A stretch of 64,000 nt of DNA from a phage. Made by a program: the position numbers and the translations under genes. Of the stretch, positions 47,341 to 63,045 are shown piece after piece (positions within the stretch are counted from its first letter, which is position 1; every line of letters begins with the position of its first letter). The notes under the pieces are model-generated. The model ran no database searches. It saw nothing but the letters and a program-made list of their open reading frames with translations, and was not told where the DNA came from. The stretch is taken from sequence record PZ583742.1; one strand, written 5' to 3'.

Positions 47341-47412
47341 CATTTAGAGGTTTACAACACCATAAAAGGGGTGTACCATTATCCCATCAACTACTGATGA
47401 GGATAATAAAAT
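47341..47412 (+). repeat. promoter plus RBS-hairpin cassette, copy 2 (PeSL-like)
   Basis: catttagaggtttacaacaccataaaaggggtgtaccattatcccatcaactactgatgaggataataaaatg. Confidence 0.6.
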
Positions 47413-47659
47413 GTTATTAGTTAATGTGCATTACCAGTTCAAATCTGAAGAAGCTCTCCAAAAGTATGCTGATATTTGTGAGCATAATAAAAGAACAGCT
47501 GCCATTGTTGGTCTGAAGCCTTTTAAAATTTTGGATTGCACCTTGAACAGAGCAAGGCGCTGGTGTAGTGTTGCCTGTCATGCTTCAGTTGAAGGGAATG
47601 ATTATTTTTTCATTACTTTCAATGCACAAGATTTTCATTTAATTAATGAATTAAAATAG
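47411..47659 (+). CDS. hypothetical protein
   Basis: First gene after terminator/promoter/RBS cassette. Confidence 0.45.
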   Translation: MLLVNVHYQFKSEEALQKYADICEHNKRTAAIVGLKPFKILDCTLNRARRWCSVACHASVEGNDYFFITFNAQDFHLINELK

Positions 47660-57982: not shown

Positions 57983-58279
57983 ATGTACTACGCATATGTG
58001 CTGGTTCACAAAGATAAAGATGGTTTTGAACGCCCATTGGAATACAATGGAAAGGTTACCTTATACACCACAAAAGCGGGTGCAGAATATGAACTTGCCA
58101 ACTATTCATATACCACAAACCGATATTTAAGTATGGGGCGTATTGAAACCATTTACATTCCTAGGAAGTGGTGGTTTGATAAGCGTGAAACAAAAACAGT
58201 TTTTCCTACTGAAGAACACGCACGAGAATTGAAACAGGTTTTATATACTTTATATGTTAAGCGAGTAAAATTGGCATGA
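57983..58279 (+). CDS. hypothetical protein
   Basis: ATG 57983 (GTG 57980 also possible). Confidence 0.4.
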   Translation: MYYAYVLVHKDKDGFERPLEYNGKVTLYTTKAGAEYELANYSYTTNRYLSMGRIETIYIPRKWWFDKRETKTVFPTEEHARELKQVLYTLYVKRVKLA

Positions 58280-59604
58280 TTAAATTTGAAGACTTGAACA
58301 CAGGACAAAAAGAAGCTTTTGATTATATCACCGAAGCTATTCAACGACGTTCAGGGGAATGTATTACTCTGAATGGTCCAGCTGGTACAGGTAAAACTAC
58401 TCTGACAAAATTTGTCATTGACCATCTGGTGCGTAATGGAGTTATGGGAATTGTGCTTGCCGCACCAACTCACCAGGCAAAAAAAGTTCTATCTAAATTG
58501 TCTGGTCAAACGGCGAATACAATCCATAGTATTCTGAAGATTAACCCGACCACATATGAAGACCAAAACGTTTTTGAACAGCGCGAAATGCCTGACATGT
58601 CAAAATGTAATGTTCTGGTTTGTGATGAAGCAAGTATGTATGACGGGTCTCTGTTTAAGATTATTCTTAACTCTGTTCCTGAATGGTGTACTATTCTTGG
58701 GATTGGTGATATGCACCAGCTGCAGCCAGTTGACCCAGGAAGCACACAACAAAAGATAAGCCCATTCTTTACGCATCCTAAGTTCAAACAGATTCATCTG
58801 ACTGAGGTTATGCGAAGCAATGCTCCTATCATTGAAGTAGCGACAGAAATTCGTAACGGGGGTTGGTTCCGCGACTGTATGTATGATGGTCATGGTGTAC
58901 AGGGTTTCACCTCACAAACCGCTTTAAAGGATTTCATGATAAACTATTTTGGTATTGTAAAAGATGCTGATATGTTGATGGAAAACAGGATGTATGCGTA
59001 CACGAATAAATCAGTTGAAAAACTGAACAATATTATTCGTCGCAAGCTCTATGAAACGGATAAAGCATTTTTACCGTATGAAGTCCTAGTTATGCAAGAG
59101 CCACACATGAAAGAGCTGGAATTTGAAGGCAAGAAATTCAGCGAAACCATTTTTAATAATGGTCAGTTGGTTCGCATCAAGGATTGCAAATACACTTCCA
59201 CAATTCTCCGTTGTAAAGGTGAATCACACCAGTTAGTGATTAATTACTGGGACCTGGAAGTTGAGTCAATTGATGAAGATGAAGAATATCAGGTTGACCG
59301 CATCAAAGTTTTACCTGAAGACCAGCAACCAAAATTCCAGGCATATCTGGCTAAAGTTGCTGACACATACAAACAGATGAAAGCCGCTGGTAAACGTCCA
59401 GAGTGGAAAGACTTCTGGAAAGCCCGCCGGACCTTCTTGAAAGTTCGTGCTCTTCCGGTTAGTACAATCCACAAGGCCCAGGGCGTTTCAGTAGACAAGG
59501 CATTCATCTATACTCCATGCATCCATATGGCCGAAGCTTCATTAGCGAGCCAGTTGGCTTATGTAGGAATCACACGAGCGAGGTACGACGCATATTATGT
59601 ATAA
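58276..59604 (+). CDS. dda: DNA helicase Dda (SF1B)
   Basis: GQK.AF; INGPAGTGKTTLTKF; ILAAPTH.AKK.LSKLSG..A.TIHSILKINP; TEV.RSNAPII; STIHKAQG.SVD.AFIYTPCIH matches T4 Dda. Confidence 0.95.
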   Translation: MIKFEDLNTGQKEAFDYITEAIQRRSGECITLNGPAGTGKTTLTKFVIDHLVRNGVMGIVLAAPTHQAKKVLSKLSGQTANTIHSILKINPTTYEDQNVFEQREMPDMSKCNVLVCDEASMYDGSLFKIILNSVPEWCTILGIGDMHQLQPVDPGSTQQKISPFFTHPKFKQIHLTEVMRSNAPIIEVATEIRNGGWFRDCMYDGHGVQGFTSQTALKDFMINYFGIVKDADMLMENRMYAYTNKSVEKLNNIIRRKLYETDKAFLPYEVLVMQEPHMKELEFEGKKFSETIFNNGQLVRIKDCKYTSTILRCKGESHQLVINYWDLEVESIDEDEEYQVDRIKVLPEDQQPKFQAYLAKVADTYKQMKAAGKRPEWKDFWKARRTFLKVRALPVSTIHKAQGVSVDKAFIYTPCIHMAEASLASQLAYVGITRARYDAYYV

Positions 59605-59836
59605 AGTACATAAAGAAGATTTAGATACTCTTATCTATGGTATTCAGGACGCGGTTGAATTTTTCGAAGATAATCCGACTATCGTCCAACAGGGTAATTA
59701 CGTTTTACTGGAACTGAGTCTTATTCAGAAACGTATGGCCGCGATTGAATATTTTAACAATGAAGAGCCAGGAATTTTTATCTCCGACTATGTTGCTGGT
59801 GAAATTCAGAAATTAAAAGAGATGTGCGATGATTGA
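59597..59836 (+). CDS. hypothetical protein (dda.1 position)
   Basis: ORF overlapping dda stop. Confidence 0.4.
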   Translation: MYKVHKEDLDTLIYGIQDAVEFFEDNPTIVQQGNYVLLELSLIQKRMAAIEYFNNEEPGIFISDYVAGEIQKLKEMCDD

Positions 59837-60548
59837 TGCTATTATTGACTTTGAAACTCTGGGAAACGGCTCGAAGGGAGCCGTTATTGACTTGGCCCTG
59901 ATTACATTCGAATCTGACCCTGCTATTGTGGAATCATTCGAAACCCTGGTTAATCGCGGCAAACGTATTAAGTTCAGTCTCGAATACCAAAAAGGAAAAC
60001 GTCTGTTTGACACAACAACCATGGGTTGGTGGAAAAAACAATCAGCAGAAGCACGTGTTAACCTGGCCCCTTCTGCACATGATGTTGATACTCTGACCGG
60101 TATCCAACAGGCGATTGACTATCTGAATGGCAATGGAATTAACAAATACGAAAGCCTTATGTGGTGCCGTGGAATGTCTTTTGACTTCCCGTTGTTTGTT
60201 GACCTTATCCGTGACCTGCAGCGCAATGAGGGTATCCCTGAGCGTGAATTGAATACCTATGACCTGGAGCCGGTTGTATTCTGGAACCAGCGAGATATCA
60301 GGACGGCAATCGAAGCCTTGTCACTCGTCCGTAAGATGTGTGAAACCCCATTACCGAAAGGGACTTTAGATGGATTTGTGGCGCACGATTCAGTGCATGA
60401 CTGCGCGAAAGATATTCTTATGCTGAAGTATGCCCAGCGCTATGCTCTTGGTTTAGATGAAGTTCCTTCCGAAGAAGATGCAGACCCGTTATCTTTACCA
60501 AAAAAAAACGATAAAAGTAGTGTACAAGGCCAATGGAAAGAGACATAA
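59829..60548 (+). CDS. dexA: exonuclease A (DnaQ-like 3'-5' exonuclease)
   Basis: MIDAIIDFETLG exo I motif; position after dda as in T4. Confidence 0.85.
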   Translation: MIDAIIDFETLGNGSKGAVIDLALITFESDPAIVESFETLVNRGKRIKFSLEYQKGKRLFDTTTMGWWKKQSAEARVNLAPSAHDVDTLTGIQQAIDYLNGNGINKYESLMWCRGMSFDFPLFVDLIRDLQRNEGIPERELNTYDLEPVVFWNQRDIRTAIEALSLVRKMCETPLPKGTLDGFVAHDSVHDCAKDILMLKYAQRYALGLDEVPSEEDADPLSLPKKNDKSSVQGQWKET

Positions 60549-60580
60549 TTATCTCATCAACTACTGATGAGGATAACAAA

Positions 60581-60838
60581 ATGATTACTTCTTTTGAAAT
60601 TGGCCAACAATATGAAATGTCCGCTCTTCAAGCTGCTGAAGCAGGTCTGACCGAAGCGTTTGAATGTGCATTTACAAATATTCGTGGTAAAATCTTTACT
60701 GTCAATAAAATTGCGGTATATGATAAAGAAACAGACATGAACAAAGGCATCTACTTGAACGTGTCAAACGCAAAAGGTCGTCGTGAAATTATGGTTGTAC
60801 AACCTAATCAACTGGCGATGTTCAATAAGGTTGCATAA
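60581..60838 (+). CDS. hypothetical protein
   Basis: Preceded by promoter/RBS-hairpin module embedded in dexA 3' end. Confidence 0.45.
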   Translation: MITSFEIGQQYEMSALQAAEAGLTEAFECAFTNIRGKIFTVNKIAVYDKETDMNKGIYLNVSNAKGRREIMVVQPNQLAMFNKVA

Positions 60839-61590
60839 TGAAACCAGAATTTATTGACTTTGATGTTGTAAGTATGTATGTTCGCCCAATTAAACCATTA
60901 AAACTTGAGAAACAAAATATGACTATTGAAATTAACAAAACTTATCAACTGATTGAACCTATTATTCAAAACGCAGCTATGGTTTCTGGGTATAATACTC
61001 TGACTGATGCTTTAGGTGAAGGTGAATTTATTGTTGAAACTTTTGTAAAAAGTAACTGGTTTGATAAAGCATATATTCTACATGCACGTCGCCTTGATAC
61101 AAATAAAGTAGAAAAAATTATGGTTTATGAAGCTGAGATTGAACTCTTCAAAGAAGTTGAAGAAACTCCTATCAAAGTTGACAAAACCTATCAACTTGTT
61201 GGATATGGTGATTTTGATAATACTAATGCATTGAATGCCGGTTGGCGGGTGCTGAAAGGTATTTTTGGATTTGCTCCATTTACCGTTAAAACAGTTAAGT
61301 ACCACAATCACCAAAGCATCTTTGAATTTACTGCGGTCAATGAATCAGGTGACAATCTTGAAGCTATCCTTTATCCACGTGAATCTGTACTGCTGGAAGA
61401 AGTTAGCGAACTGGGTGACCCTATTGACTTGCTGTGTAAACCAGTTCAAATCAAACGCCCATTTAACAGTTCCATTTGTGGTTGGGTAACAGACCAGTGG
61501 ATTGAAGAGAGTGTTGAACTCCTGAACGTTGTCCATGCTGGTGAATTTACTGTTGTACCACGTTCCATGGTTGTTGAAATTTTTAATTAA
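60838..61590 (+). CDS. hypothetical protein with internal repeats; paralogue of 61670..62230
   Basis: Internal repeats INKTYQLIEP / VDKTYQLVGYGDF; C-terminus VTDQWIEESVELLNVVHAGEFTVVPRSMVVE similar to next gene. Confidence 0.5.
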   Translation: MKPEFIDFDVVSMYVRPIKPLKLEKQNMTIEINKTYQLIEPIIQNAAMVSGYNTLTDALGEGEFIVETFVKSNWFDKAYILHARRLDTNKVEKIMVYEAEIELFKEVEETPIKVDKTYQLVGYGDFDNTNALNAGWRVLKGIFGFAPFTVKTVKYHNHQSIFEFTAVNESGDNLEAILYPRESVLLEEVSELGDPIDLLCKPVQIKRPFNSSICGWVTDQWIEESVELLNVVHAGEFTVVPRSMVVEIFN

Positions 61591-61597
61591 ATTTAAA

Positions 61598-61628
61598 GTG
61601 TACAAACTCTTGGGGTCAGAGTATAATG
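61598..61628 (+). promoter_or_regulatory. early promoter-like element TGTACA-N17-TATAAT with hairpin around -10
   Basis: TGTACA 61599-61604, TATAAT 61622-61627; inverted repeat ggggtca/tgacccc brackets the -10. Confidence 0.5.
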
Positions 61629-61669
61629 ACCCCACTGGAGAATAAACTTATTAACCAAGAGAGAAAATT

Positions 61670-62230
61670 ATGAAAGTTGAAGCTGGCGAAATCGTTCGCG
61701 TATCCAAAAAATCTCGTTCAAGAGCCGCTGGACGTTTTGTTGAGGTTGTCAGTATTCGTGCTGATATTTTTGTTGACCATCCTGATAATGAAGTAAAGGT
61801 GCGTATCATTCCCAAAAATGGTCAGACTGAAACTCAATTCGCTTATGTTCGTGCTAAATTCCTGGAATCAACTGCTATTACTGCCGCCAACCTCCCTGTG
61901 GTTGAAGAAGTTGAATCCCATGATGGATATGTGTGCGAAAGCAATGATATCCGTGGCGTAATTGCTCAAGACGTTGAAACCATTGACCAGTCTCATGTTG
62001 GGGTTGATTTTAAATGGAAATTGGGCAAAGGTGTCTTTTTTGTTTCACCTAAACCGTTTGAATATGTTGACGAACCTTTTGGTACTTATGAAACCACTAG
62101 CATGTCTGGTTACATCACAGACCAGTGGGTTGAAGAAGGCGTTAAGCTCTATAACATCGTGTTCCTTGGAACCTTTAAGGTGGTTCCTGAAAGCTTTATC
62201 GTTGAGTATGCTGATATTCATCGTGCCTAA
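61670..62230 (+). CDS. hypothetical protein, paralogue of 60838..61590
   Basis: C-terminus ITDQWVEEGVKLYNIVFLGTFKVVPESFIVE; downstream of TGTACA-N17-TATAAT promoter. Confidence 0.5.
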   Translation: MKVEAGEIVRVSKKSRSRAAGRFVEVVSIRADIFVDHPDNEVKVRIIPKNGQTETQFAYVRAKFLESTAITAANLPVVEEVESHDGYVCESNDIRGVIAQDVETIDQSHVGVDFKWKLGKGVFFVSPKPFEYVDEPFGTYETTSMSGYITDQWVEEGVKLYNIVFLGTFKVVPESFIVEYADIHRA

Positions 62231-62278
62231 ATTATAAAAATGATAGGGTAAAATTACCCTATCAATGAGGAGAATATT

Positions 62279-62509
62279 ATGTTTAATGAAAATTGTGTGA
62301 CCACTTCCCTGACTGCTGAAGAGTTCTGGGACACTGCTGAAAGTGATAAAGTGATTGTGAAGAAAAACATCAATGAATTTCTTTGTACCACTGACATCAT
62401 TTATGTGTACGCAGATAAAGATGCAGAACTACCTAGCTATGCGCTGTTCCGCGAAGAATCAGAAGATGGCACAGATTTTTGGAAGGAGACTTATCATGTT
62501 GAAATTTGA
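62279..62509 (+). CDS. hypothetical protein
   Basis: RBS GAGGAGAA. Confidence 0.4.
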   Translation: MFNENCVTTSLTAEEFWDTAESDKVIVKKNINEFLCTTDIIYVYADKDAELPSYALFREESEDGTDFWKETYHVEI

Positions 62510-62870
62510 AACTGATAAATGGTATTATTTTAAAGATAATGTTGCTGAAAGCAGATTTCGTTTGTTATGCTCTGATAATGATAATATAGCTGATGCTATA
62601 ATCAATGGTGAAGGATTTAGACCAGTCGGAATTGAAGGTGGTGATGTATATCGGATAGAATTTTCGACCGGTGGAATAGAGAGAATATTCATAAAGGAAG
62701 ATGAGCGTCGTTTCTTTGAAGAAGAAAAAGATGACGATACTGAAGATGAATGCGAAGACGCTGATGAAGCATTTGAACCAAGCGAATTCCCTTTGACTAA
62801 AATCACCATTTCTAATAACTCTGAAGCCTGGACCGTTTACCAGATGTTGAAAGCACACTTTAAGGAATAA
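62496..62870 (+). CDS. acidic hypothetical protein
   Basis: ATG 62496 after GGAAGGAGA. Confidence 0.4.
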   Translation: MLKFETDKWYYFKDNVAESRFRLLCSDNDNIADAIINGEGFRPVGIEGGDVYRIEFSTGGIERIFIKEDERRFFEEEKDDDTEDECEDADEAFEPSEFPLTKITISNNSEAWTVYQMLKAHFKE

Positions 62871-62871
62871 C

Positions 62872-63045
62872 ATGCCACTTTATGATTACAAATGTCAATC
62901 CAATGACTGCGCGAAAGAATACGAAAAAATCAAGAAAATCTCTGAAAGAGATAATGATGTTTGTCCTGATTGCCATCGGCTGGCTGTTCGGTTAGTCTCG
63001 GCTCCTAAACATGTTAATGGCGGTTTTTACGACCTTTTGAAGTGA
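62872..63045 (+). CDS. FmdB-like zinc-ribbon protein (57 aa)
   Basis: MPLYDYKCQSNDC..x..CPDCH: N-terminal MP.Y.Y.C..C plus second CxxC, typical of FmdB-family zinc ribbons; below ORF-track size cutoff. Confidence 0.45.
   Translation: MPLYDYKCQSNDCAKEYEKIKKISERDNDVCPDCHRLAVRLVSAPKHVNGGFYDLLK

Follow-up and report, generated by a model that had tools for sequence, protein, structure and literature searches.

Tandem small barrels predicted in the MotB.1 ortholog of a Gaprivervirus, and a C-terminal module in common with MotB

How far does the likeness between two neighbouring early genes of a T4-like phage extend, and from which parts are the two proteins built? The question is raised by the open reading frames (ORFs) at 60838-61590 and 61670-62230 of sequence record PZ583742.1, analysed here as a stretch of 64,000 nucleotides (nt; the window). 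The window is the genome of a T4-like phage of the genus Gaprivervirus; between 59800 and 63100 it is 97.4% identical to Escherichia phage vB_EcoM_RZ (RZ) and 94% identical to Shigella phage SP18. The original prediction described the two ORFs as paralogous genes whose family appears to be built from a duplicated domain of about 90 amino acids (aa). Both are present as described on the plus strand, encode 250 and 186 aa, and lie in the dexA-to-motB interval. From sequence and gene order we identify them as motB.1 and motB; the internal repeat belongs to MotB.1, where it appears to represent two diverged copies of a small β-barrel. The account as a whole, comprising the identity of the genes, their C-terminal paralogy, the tandem barrels, their origin and their mode of action, is in our judgement probable.

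Identity of the two genes

The two genes and their predicted parts are arranged as follows.

60838-61590, plus strand: motB.1 ortholog, 250 aa, consisting of leader motif, repeat A, repeat B and MotB-type C-terminal module
60847-60909, plus strand: leader motif FIDFDVVSMYVRPIKPLKLEK, residues 4-24, located with a motif hidden Markov model (HMM)
60919-61161, plus strand: repeat A, residues 28-108, putative LSm/SH3-like small barrel, of the type seen in the 180-aa MotB.1 of Dhakavirus/Tequatrovirus
61162-61416, plus strand: repeat B, residues 109-193, predicted to fold like A, and of the type of the N-terminal domain in T4 MotB.1
61417-61587, plus strand: C-terminal module, residues 194-250, with the MotB-common core at residues 210-248 (61465-61581)
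61670-62230, plus strand: motB, 186 aa, consisting of KOW-like N-terminal domain, disordered linker and C-terminal β-domain
MotB residues 1-66: KOW-like N-terminal domain; the PF17613 profile matches residues 1-67 at 79 bits
MotB residues 69-107: linker, predicted disordered, with an AlphaFold2 (AF2) predicted local distance difference test (pLDDT) below 50
MotB residues 108-181: C-terminal β-domain, AF2 pLDDT 84-94
62096-62206, plus strand: MotB core in common with MotB.1, residues 143-179

The 250-aa protein matches phrog_2333 (E 6.1e-77), and within the dexA-39 early region its ORF directly precedes motB, as in T4, JS98, SP18 and RZ. The 250-aa ortholog is named motB.1 in SP18 and JS98 and 'MotB-like' in the RefSeq annotation of RZ. 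Orthologs from SP18 (SP18_gp012), VR7, VR20 (VR20_011), VR25 and VR26 are included in Table S4 of PMC7827196. By sequence and synteny, the ORF at 60838-61590 is assigned as the MotB.1 ortholog. The protein is not a full-length member of Pfam family PF17613, which it matches with 30.6 bits over profile positions 118-154 of 162 only (residues 210-246).

The 186-aa protein matches PF17613 along its length (E 2.6e-57, 193.6 bits at a cut-off of 25), both halves match separately, and it also matches phrog_1671 (E 3.5e-69). All 120 homologs of the protein carry PF17613. The ORF at 61670-62230, which had been taken for a downstream member of the repeat family, is thus identified as motB itself, a full-length ortholog of T4 MotB and the gene at which the dexA-motB interval ends. 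AF2 predicts a four-strand barrel for the N-terminal domain (pLDDT 61-86).

When MotB is compared with the 250-aa protein, BLASTP reports a single significant segment, in which MotB residues 128-179 pair with MotB.1 residues 201-247 (46% identity over 52 columns, E 5e-12); the parallel between the C-termini was correctly predicted. An HMM of the MotB C-terminal domain covers the 250-aa protein with profile positions 43-81 only (residues 210-248, E 1.4e-12), and the common C-terminus is also visible as a DNA repeat of 60 nt with 72% identity (61473-61532 and 62101-62160). The conserved core reads WVTDQW(I/V)E(D/E)GV(E/K)L(L/Y)N(V/I)V..G.F.VVP.S. The MotB.1 module is about 64-70% identical to other MotB.1 modules, as against 46-50% to MotB. 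A conserved C-terminal domain in common to MotB and MotB.1 and different N-terminal regions have been reported previously, and a gene duplication has been proposed (PMC7827196). Our alignments place the paralogy in the C-terminal β-module alone, with a core of about 40-50 aa, so that the predicted paralogs are partial ones. All four gene segments are under purifying selection in six Gaprivervirus orthologs, with ratios of nonsynonymous to synonymous substitution (dN/dS) of 0.12-0.45.

Tandem repeats of MotB.1

The repeat motifs of MotB.1 are present as INKTYQLIEP (residues 32-41) and VDKTYQLVGYGDF (residues 114-126). A local alignment of residues 21-112 with residues 109-205 scores 59, compared to 25.3 (standard deviation 4.6) for shuffled sequences; this corresponds to a z of 7.3, and none of 2000 shuffles reaches the score. 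Comparing the profiles of A and B, hhalign gives a probability of 96.8% (E 2.5e-10, 77 columns), and an HMM trained on nothing but A-type copies from other phages detects the Gaprivervirus B copies with i-E 3.6e-7 to 8.8e-5 (window 5.9e-5). At the DNA level, a 33-nt stretch with 79% identity opens both copies, at 60923 and 61169, with a spacing of 246 nt or 82 codons. The internal repeat was therefore rightly recognised, and both copies have the same predicted secondary structure; its period is about 82-85 aa rather than about 90.

In the AF2 model, repeat A (pLDDT 81-90) comprises strands at residues 35-38, 63-71, 78-85, 91-97 and 104-106 and helices at 46-59 and 98-103. Repeat B (pLDDT 72-86) comprises strands at 117-120, 148-156, 161-168, 173-178 and 186-189 and helices at 130-143 and 180-185. 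The order of elements is the same in both, namely strand, long helix, three strands, short helix and strand, with an offset of 82-85 residues. Such an order would fit an SH3-type barrel whose first loop holds a helix and whose last strand is preceded by a short one.

The two copies are only 29% identical to each other. Repeat A, which is of the type present in Dhakavirus and most Tequatrovirus MotB.1 proteins, shares 54-72% identity with the one N-terminal domain (A type) that MotB.1 has in other genera. Repeat B and the stand-alone B domain of protein P0110, which is encoded at the same locus, are 48% identical. Both are under purifying selection, with dN/dS of 0.12 in A versus 0.36 in B. The isolated repeats match no Pfam model and no sequence relative in the Protein Data Bank (PDB).

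The duplication did not prove to be the building principle of the whole family. In MotB, the HMMs of A and of B find no match, and hhalign of either repeat against the MotB N-terminal domain gives a probability of 0.1-0.2%. Among MotB.1 proteins themselves, the single-copy form prevails (101 of 123 clusters, versus 7 with two copies).

Relationship to the GoF family

An LSm-like fold family made up of GoF together with MotB.1 and Frd.2, with the barrel in N-terminal position, has been described by Kim et al. 2025 (PMC12152347). T4 MotB.1 is aligned by tblastn to window residues 108-250, and by phmmer with its residues 2-115 to window residues 112-222. Repeat B aligns over its full length with the T4-type N-terminal domains (hhalign E 2.9e-5) and with the N-terminal domain of GoF (E 1.1e-4). 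Repeat A aligns, again over its full length, with a family of 123-aa GoF-like ORFs (E 5.6e-7), and the 123-aa ORF in turn aligns with GoF (E 5.1e-7). The negative controls, which were the MotB N-terminal domain, a 101-aa ORF upstream of motB.1 and an N-terminal extension of some MotB.1 proteins termed domain X, remained at E of at least 0.0066 and probabilities of at most 6%. Against predicted viral structures, Foldseek recovers the T4 MotB.1 model (P39415) with E 1.6e-8 and a template modelling (TM) score of 0.68. The goF homolog of the window belongs to the same A/B barrel family with its N-terminal domain (residues 1-77), and matches T4 GoF by phmmer with E 2.1e-14. We assign the 82-aa unit, on these profile and model comparisons, to the GoF/MotB.1/Frd.2 'LSm-like' (SH3-topology) barrel; the membership of Frd.2 is taken from the literature (PMC12152347).

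Searching the PDB with the whole 250-aa model gave no Foldseek match at E of 0.001 or below, and no Sm or Hfq entry stood among the top 50. The best matches were tandem Tudor, Agenet, EF-P/eIF5A and PCNA structures, and the MotB model fell into a similar weak class. The likeness to tandem Tudor, Agenet and KOW proteins is one of architecture class and not of membership. Kinship with PCNA, which the Foldseek match and a β-α-β-β-β motif had brought up, was rejected (probability 0.2-0.5, TM 0.13).

Further members and non-members of the barrel family were observed alongside. An 82-aa ORF at 47411-47659 of the window is an additional single-domain GoF barrel member (phrog_2980 'goF', E 4.7e-20; phmmer with T4 GoF, E 1.9e-4; hhalign against the GoF N-terminal domain, E 1.2e-5). 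Downstream of goF, Tequatrovirus-like loci carry a barrel-family ORF of 123-141 aa (L016 5171-5542; also L014, L017, L018, L019 and L020). This ORF matches phrog_622 (E 3.4e-28), has no counterpart in T4 itself and provides the strongest link in sequence from repeat A to GoF. Two candidates that resembled barrel copies by eye were discarded, namely the 101-aa ORF at 60533-60838 (best hhalign E 0.011, probability at most 6%) and domain X (best E 0.0066, probability at most 6%). In a metagenomic contig with the motif-B-CTD form of MotB.1 described below (L022), the gene in the goF position (1880-2599) encodes 239 aa with a GoF C-terminal domain (E 3.3e-22). Its N-terminal region of about 190 aa perhaps contains two barrel-like units by eye; HMMs gave nothing significant there.

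Architecture of MotB.1 across phages

Layouts were counted in 123 MotB.1 protein clusters, where motif stands for the leader motif and CTD for the C-terminal domain.

101 clusters: motif-A-CTD, about 180 aa
9 clusters: X-motif-A-CTD, about 248 aa, with X as an unrelated N-terminal extension
7 clusters: motif-A-B-CTD, all Gaprivervirus-like and at least 88% identical to the window protein
1 cluster: motif-B-CTD (P0110)
Loci L018, L019 and L021: B-motif-CTD (T4 type)

All of these layouts occupy the equivalent locus. In an exhaustive search of 1.84 billion representatives with the A+B profile, the two-copy form is a single cluster. The search otherwise returned only MotB.1-type proteins and a set of long repetitive proteins, and did not reach GoF or Frd.2. 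The long repetitive matches were set aside as spurious: P0242 is highly repetitive on inspection, and the other eight (647-5,855 aa with 5-9 stretches each) were treated alike uninspected.

Domain X (MNTFDPNAKYIVTPY..., about 80 aa) precedes the leader in some MotB.1 proteins of 245-251 aa (L006 2862-3617, L007 2868-3617, L023 2840-3580). No PHROG matches it, and comparison with the barrel family shows no significant similarity. In protein P0244, X occurs together with a third, diverged variant of the barrel; the second stretch reported there scores only 4.9 bits.

The reference T4 motB.1 (L003, NC_000866, 2510-3019) differs from the intact 167-aa ortholog of L018 by a 66-nt deletion, which removes the IDxD..SMY motif, and by an extra G, which causes a +1 frameshift inside the conserved core. 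The resulting 119-aa protein ends in ...WVTDQWIGRWR, and the remainder (EDGVELLNVVHAGEYSVVPRS...) can be read in frame +1. In L017, motB.1 is likewise split, into ORFs of 93 aa and 85 aa. Owing to the loss of the motif and the frameshift, the only MotB.1 that has been studied experimentally is truncated and not equivalent to the window protein. These lesions may explain its lack of phenotype, and intact alleles, such as the Gaprivervirus form or the 167-aa form of L018, would be better experimental subjects.

Leader motif and C-terminal module

The leader-motif HMM matches N-terminally in all A-type and Gaprivervirus proteins, and after domain X in the variants of 249-251 aa. In T4-type MotB.1, the motif lies internally, with the barrel before it and the C-terminal module after it (E 6.5e-10 to 1.1e-6); below E 1, the HMM found nothing further. 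We joined the leader and the C-terminal module of the window protein in silico and compared the product with the contiguous segment of T4-type proteins. The two are colinear from end to end (hhalign E 1.9e-49, 64% identity, 74 columns). Since leader and C-terminal module are contiguous in T4-type proteins, the repeats of the window protein interrupt a segment that is contiguous elsewhere, and the occurrence of barrels on either side of the conserved motif suggests that motif and C-terminal module belong together structurally.

The T4-type segment also aligns with the whole C-terminal domain of MotB (75 columns, E 2.8e-18), with confidence only in the last ~40 columns. In the other half, hhalign pairs SHIDMD of the leader with SHVGVD in the first strands of the MotB domain at low confidence, and we hypothesize that the leader motif represents these first strands. 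The simplest reading would be that motif and C-terminal segment form one MotB-type domain, into which two barrels have been inserted in the window phage. As AF2 gives both pieces a pLDDT below 55, we can only infer that they fold together. A bolder form of this idea, which we regard as rather doubtful, is that MotB.1 is a nested-domain protein with barrels placed in a loop of the MotB-type domain made of leader and C-terminal module, and that the two unlike barrels constitute a built-in heterodimer in this genus. If so, barrel position and number would have been reshuffled repeatedly among closely related phages, and the locus would offer a natural domain-insertion and permutation series of a nucleoid- or RNA-targeting factor.

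Gene order and regulatory elements

The genes around motB.1 and motB in the window are the following.

58276-59604, plus strand: dda
59597-59836, plus strand: 79-aa ORF
59829-60548, plus strand: dexA
60533-60838, plus strand: 101-aa ORF, phrog_17795
61598-61633, plus strand: putative conserved T4-type early promoter of motB, with -35 GTGTACA and -10 TATAAT (61622-61627), scoring 10 of 12 in the scan
62279-62509, plus strand: cef
62496-62870, plus strand: goF homolog, 124 aa, phrog_622 (E 1.3e-29)
62872-63045, plus strand: 39.2

The order dda, dexA, x, motB.1, motB, cef, goF, 39.2 is the same in SP18, RZ, JS98 and T4, with T4 reading dexA, motB.2, motB.1, motB, cef, goF. The 101-aa ORF fills the slot held by motB.2 (phrog_1106, 166-169 aa) in T4, JS98 and most relatives, and among the 23 loci compared it is found only in five Gaprivervirus-like ones (L001, L002, L011-L013). 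The gene motB.1 is part of an early transcription unit. Its ATG overlaps the stop codon of this upstream ORF (TAATG), through which its translation is probably coupled.

The motB promoter has its equivalent in front of motB in T4 and at other loci as well. In the window, the -10 hexamer is situated in the loop of a 7-base-pair (bp) stem, GGGGTCA/TGACCCC, within a stem-loop at 61612-61633. All 8 distinct T4-like sequences compared keep the stem 100% paired, with compensatory changes at four of its seven pairs, while controls with the partner slid by 1-3 columns are 27-48% paired. As RNA, this hairpin would exist only in transcripts that read through from motB.1. A second, perfect hairpin of 10 bp (TGATAGGGTAAAATTACCCTATCA) is located at 62241-62264, between the stop codon of motB and the ribosome-binding site of cef; it has a terminator score on the minus strand only, where no gene ends. 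An Rfam search of 60400-62600 matched no family.

Discussion

The two-barrel MotB.1 of the window is largely explained by what has been reported for the MotB.1 group (PMC7827196) and for the LSm-like family (PMC12152347). The former study divides the group into categories with 'distinct NTD motifs'; the text of the latter contains neither 'duplicat*' nor 'two copies', and uses 'tandem' twice, both times for a reporter assay. As far as found in the searched literature on MotB.1, three points are new: the tandem two-barrel layout, which is confined to Gapriverviruses, the equivalence of the two 'distinct' N-terminal types, and the movable position of the barrel relative to the leader motif. The two N-terminal motifs would accordingly be diverged copies of a common barrel domain, both of which occur within the same polypeptide in one genus.

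Several observations weigh against our account. In the 250-aa protein, AF2 models leader and C-terminal module with low confidence (pLDDT 35-54), and only the last ~40 residues are significant with the MotB C-terminal HMM. Compared directly, repeat A is but weakly related to the T4-type N-terminal domains (hhalign E 0.035) and to GoF (E 0.015), so that its link to both runs through intermediates. In T4, the deletion of motB.1 has no phenotype, and an RNA reporter assay showed no effect of MotB.1 (PMC12152347).

With respect to origin, we postulate that the A+B form arose by the joining of two old domain variants or is a retained old duplication, and not a recent duplication in place. The pair would be old because A is closer to the A domains of other genera, and B to the B domain of P0110, than A and B are to each other. 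These same values argue against a recent tandem duplication in the Gaprivervirus lineage, with the second copy then diverging rapidly, as does the alignment of B, and not of A, with the T4 N-terminal domain. Such an event would account for the restriction of the two-copy form to this genus, for the 33-nt similarity that opens both copies and for the faster evolution of B, but we consider it quite improbable. It is somewhat easier to imagine, though still unlikely, that A+B is the ancestral layout of MotB.1, from which motif-A-CTD, motif-B-CTD and B-motif-CTD forms arose elsewhere by loss or rearrangement. Every single-domain variant is indeed present at the equivalent locus, and the conserved start of the repeats (K-T-Y-x-L, with its DNA similarity) would permit the clean deletion of one unit. 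However, several independent losses would be needed for a form that is found in only 7 of 123 clusters and one genus, and the T4-type order, with B before the motif, would be left unexplained. We give hardly any credence to the view that the two genes are paralogous over their whole length, as one family with a duplicated ~90-aa domain, MotB included. The C-terminus is clearly homologous, all modules are predicted to be small β-barrels, and in the PDB both models find their best matches among tandem Tudor, Agenet and KOW structures, although only at E of at least 0.007. Yet the similarity is limited to MotB residues 143-179, the HMMs of A and B are silent in MotB, neither repeat aligns with its N-terminal domain, and the disordered linker of 40 residues sits where a repeat would have to be.

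In terms of function, MotB.1 would be a non-essential early accessory protein. The MotB-type module may supply the activity common to MotB and MotB.1, such as binding to nucleic acid or the nucleoid, or to a common partner, for example H-NS/StpA. The barrels may add a second binding surface, with RNA, a protein partner or single-stranded nucleic acid as its ligand. T4 MotB.1 is reported to run both as a monomer and as a dimer (PMC12152347), and because this single-barrel protein forms dimers, we propose that A+B could act as an intramolecular pseudo-dimer, a fixed heterodimer of a domain that otherwise pairs between molecules. A possible though less favoured alternative is that the barrels bind proteins as SH3-, Tudor- or FeoA-like adaptors and are not RNA-binding LSm domains, and that MotB.1 recruits a host protein to the site of the MotB-type module. 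The gain-of-function mutant GoF D25Y, which stabilises an mRNA, speaks against it, and all structural matches obtained here are below significance. The early genes motB, motB.1 and goF are conserved in T4-like phages, and even after decades their roles are not clear; the present results leave the general picture of phage biology unchanged and refine a small known family.

Compared with known systems, the MotB of the window closely resembles T4 MotB, which binds DNA tightly and non-specifically, co-purifies with H-NS/StpA (PMC6070864, PMC7827196) and alters H-NS footprints (PMC7827196). Position, conserved early promoter, KOW-like N-terminal domain and C-terminal β-domain are all the same. The window protein differs in its length of 186 aa, versus 162 aa in T4, with a linker that is 24 aa longer and predicted to be disordered. 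T4 MotB.1 (P39415; MotB.1 group, categories 2-4 of PMC7827196) is encoded at the same locus directly upstream of motB, and its N-terminal domain (residues 1-82) corresponds to repeat B. In T4-type MotB.1, one barrel stands before the IDxD..SMY motif, whereas the window protein has two barrels placed after it. The unit itself resembles the GoF/MotB.1/Frd.2 family in being an N-terminal five-strand barrel of about 80 aa, found in T4-like phages only and encoded by non-essential early genes. The described members of that family, however, are single-domain proteins (PMC12152347), in contrast to the two diverged copies predicted on one polypeptide here. Two or three barrels of SH3 topology per chain are also found in tandem small-barrel readers, such as the tandem Tudor proteins 53BP1 and UHRF1, Agenet pairs, KOW6-7 of Spt5 and EF-P/eIF5A. 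To these, the MotB.1 and MotB models are alike in architecture alone, with E of at least 0.007, TM of 0.13-0.26 relative to the query and no sequence similarity.

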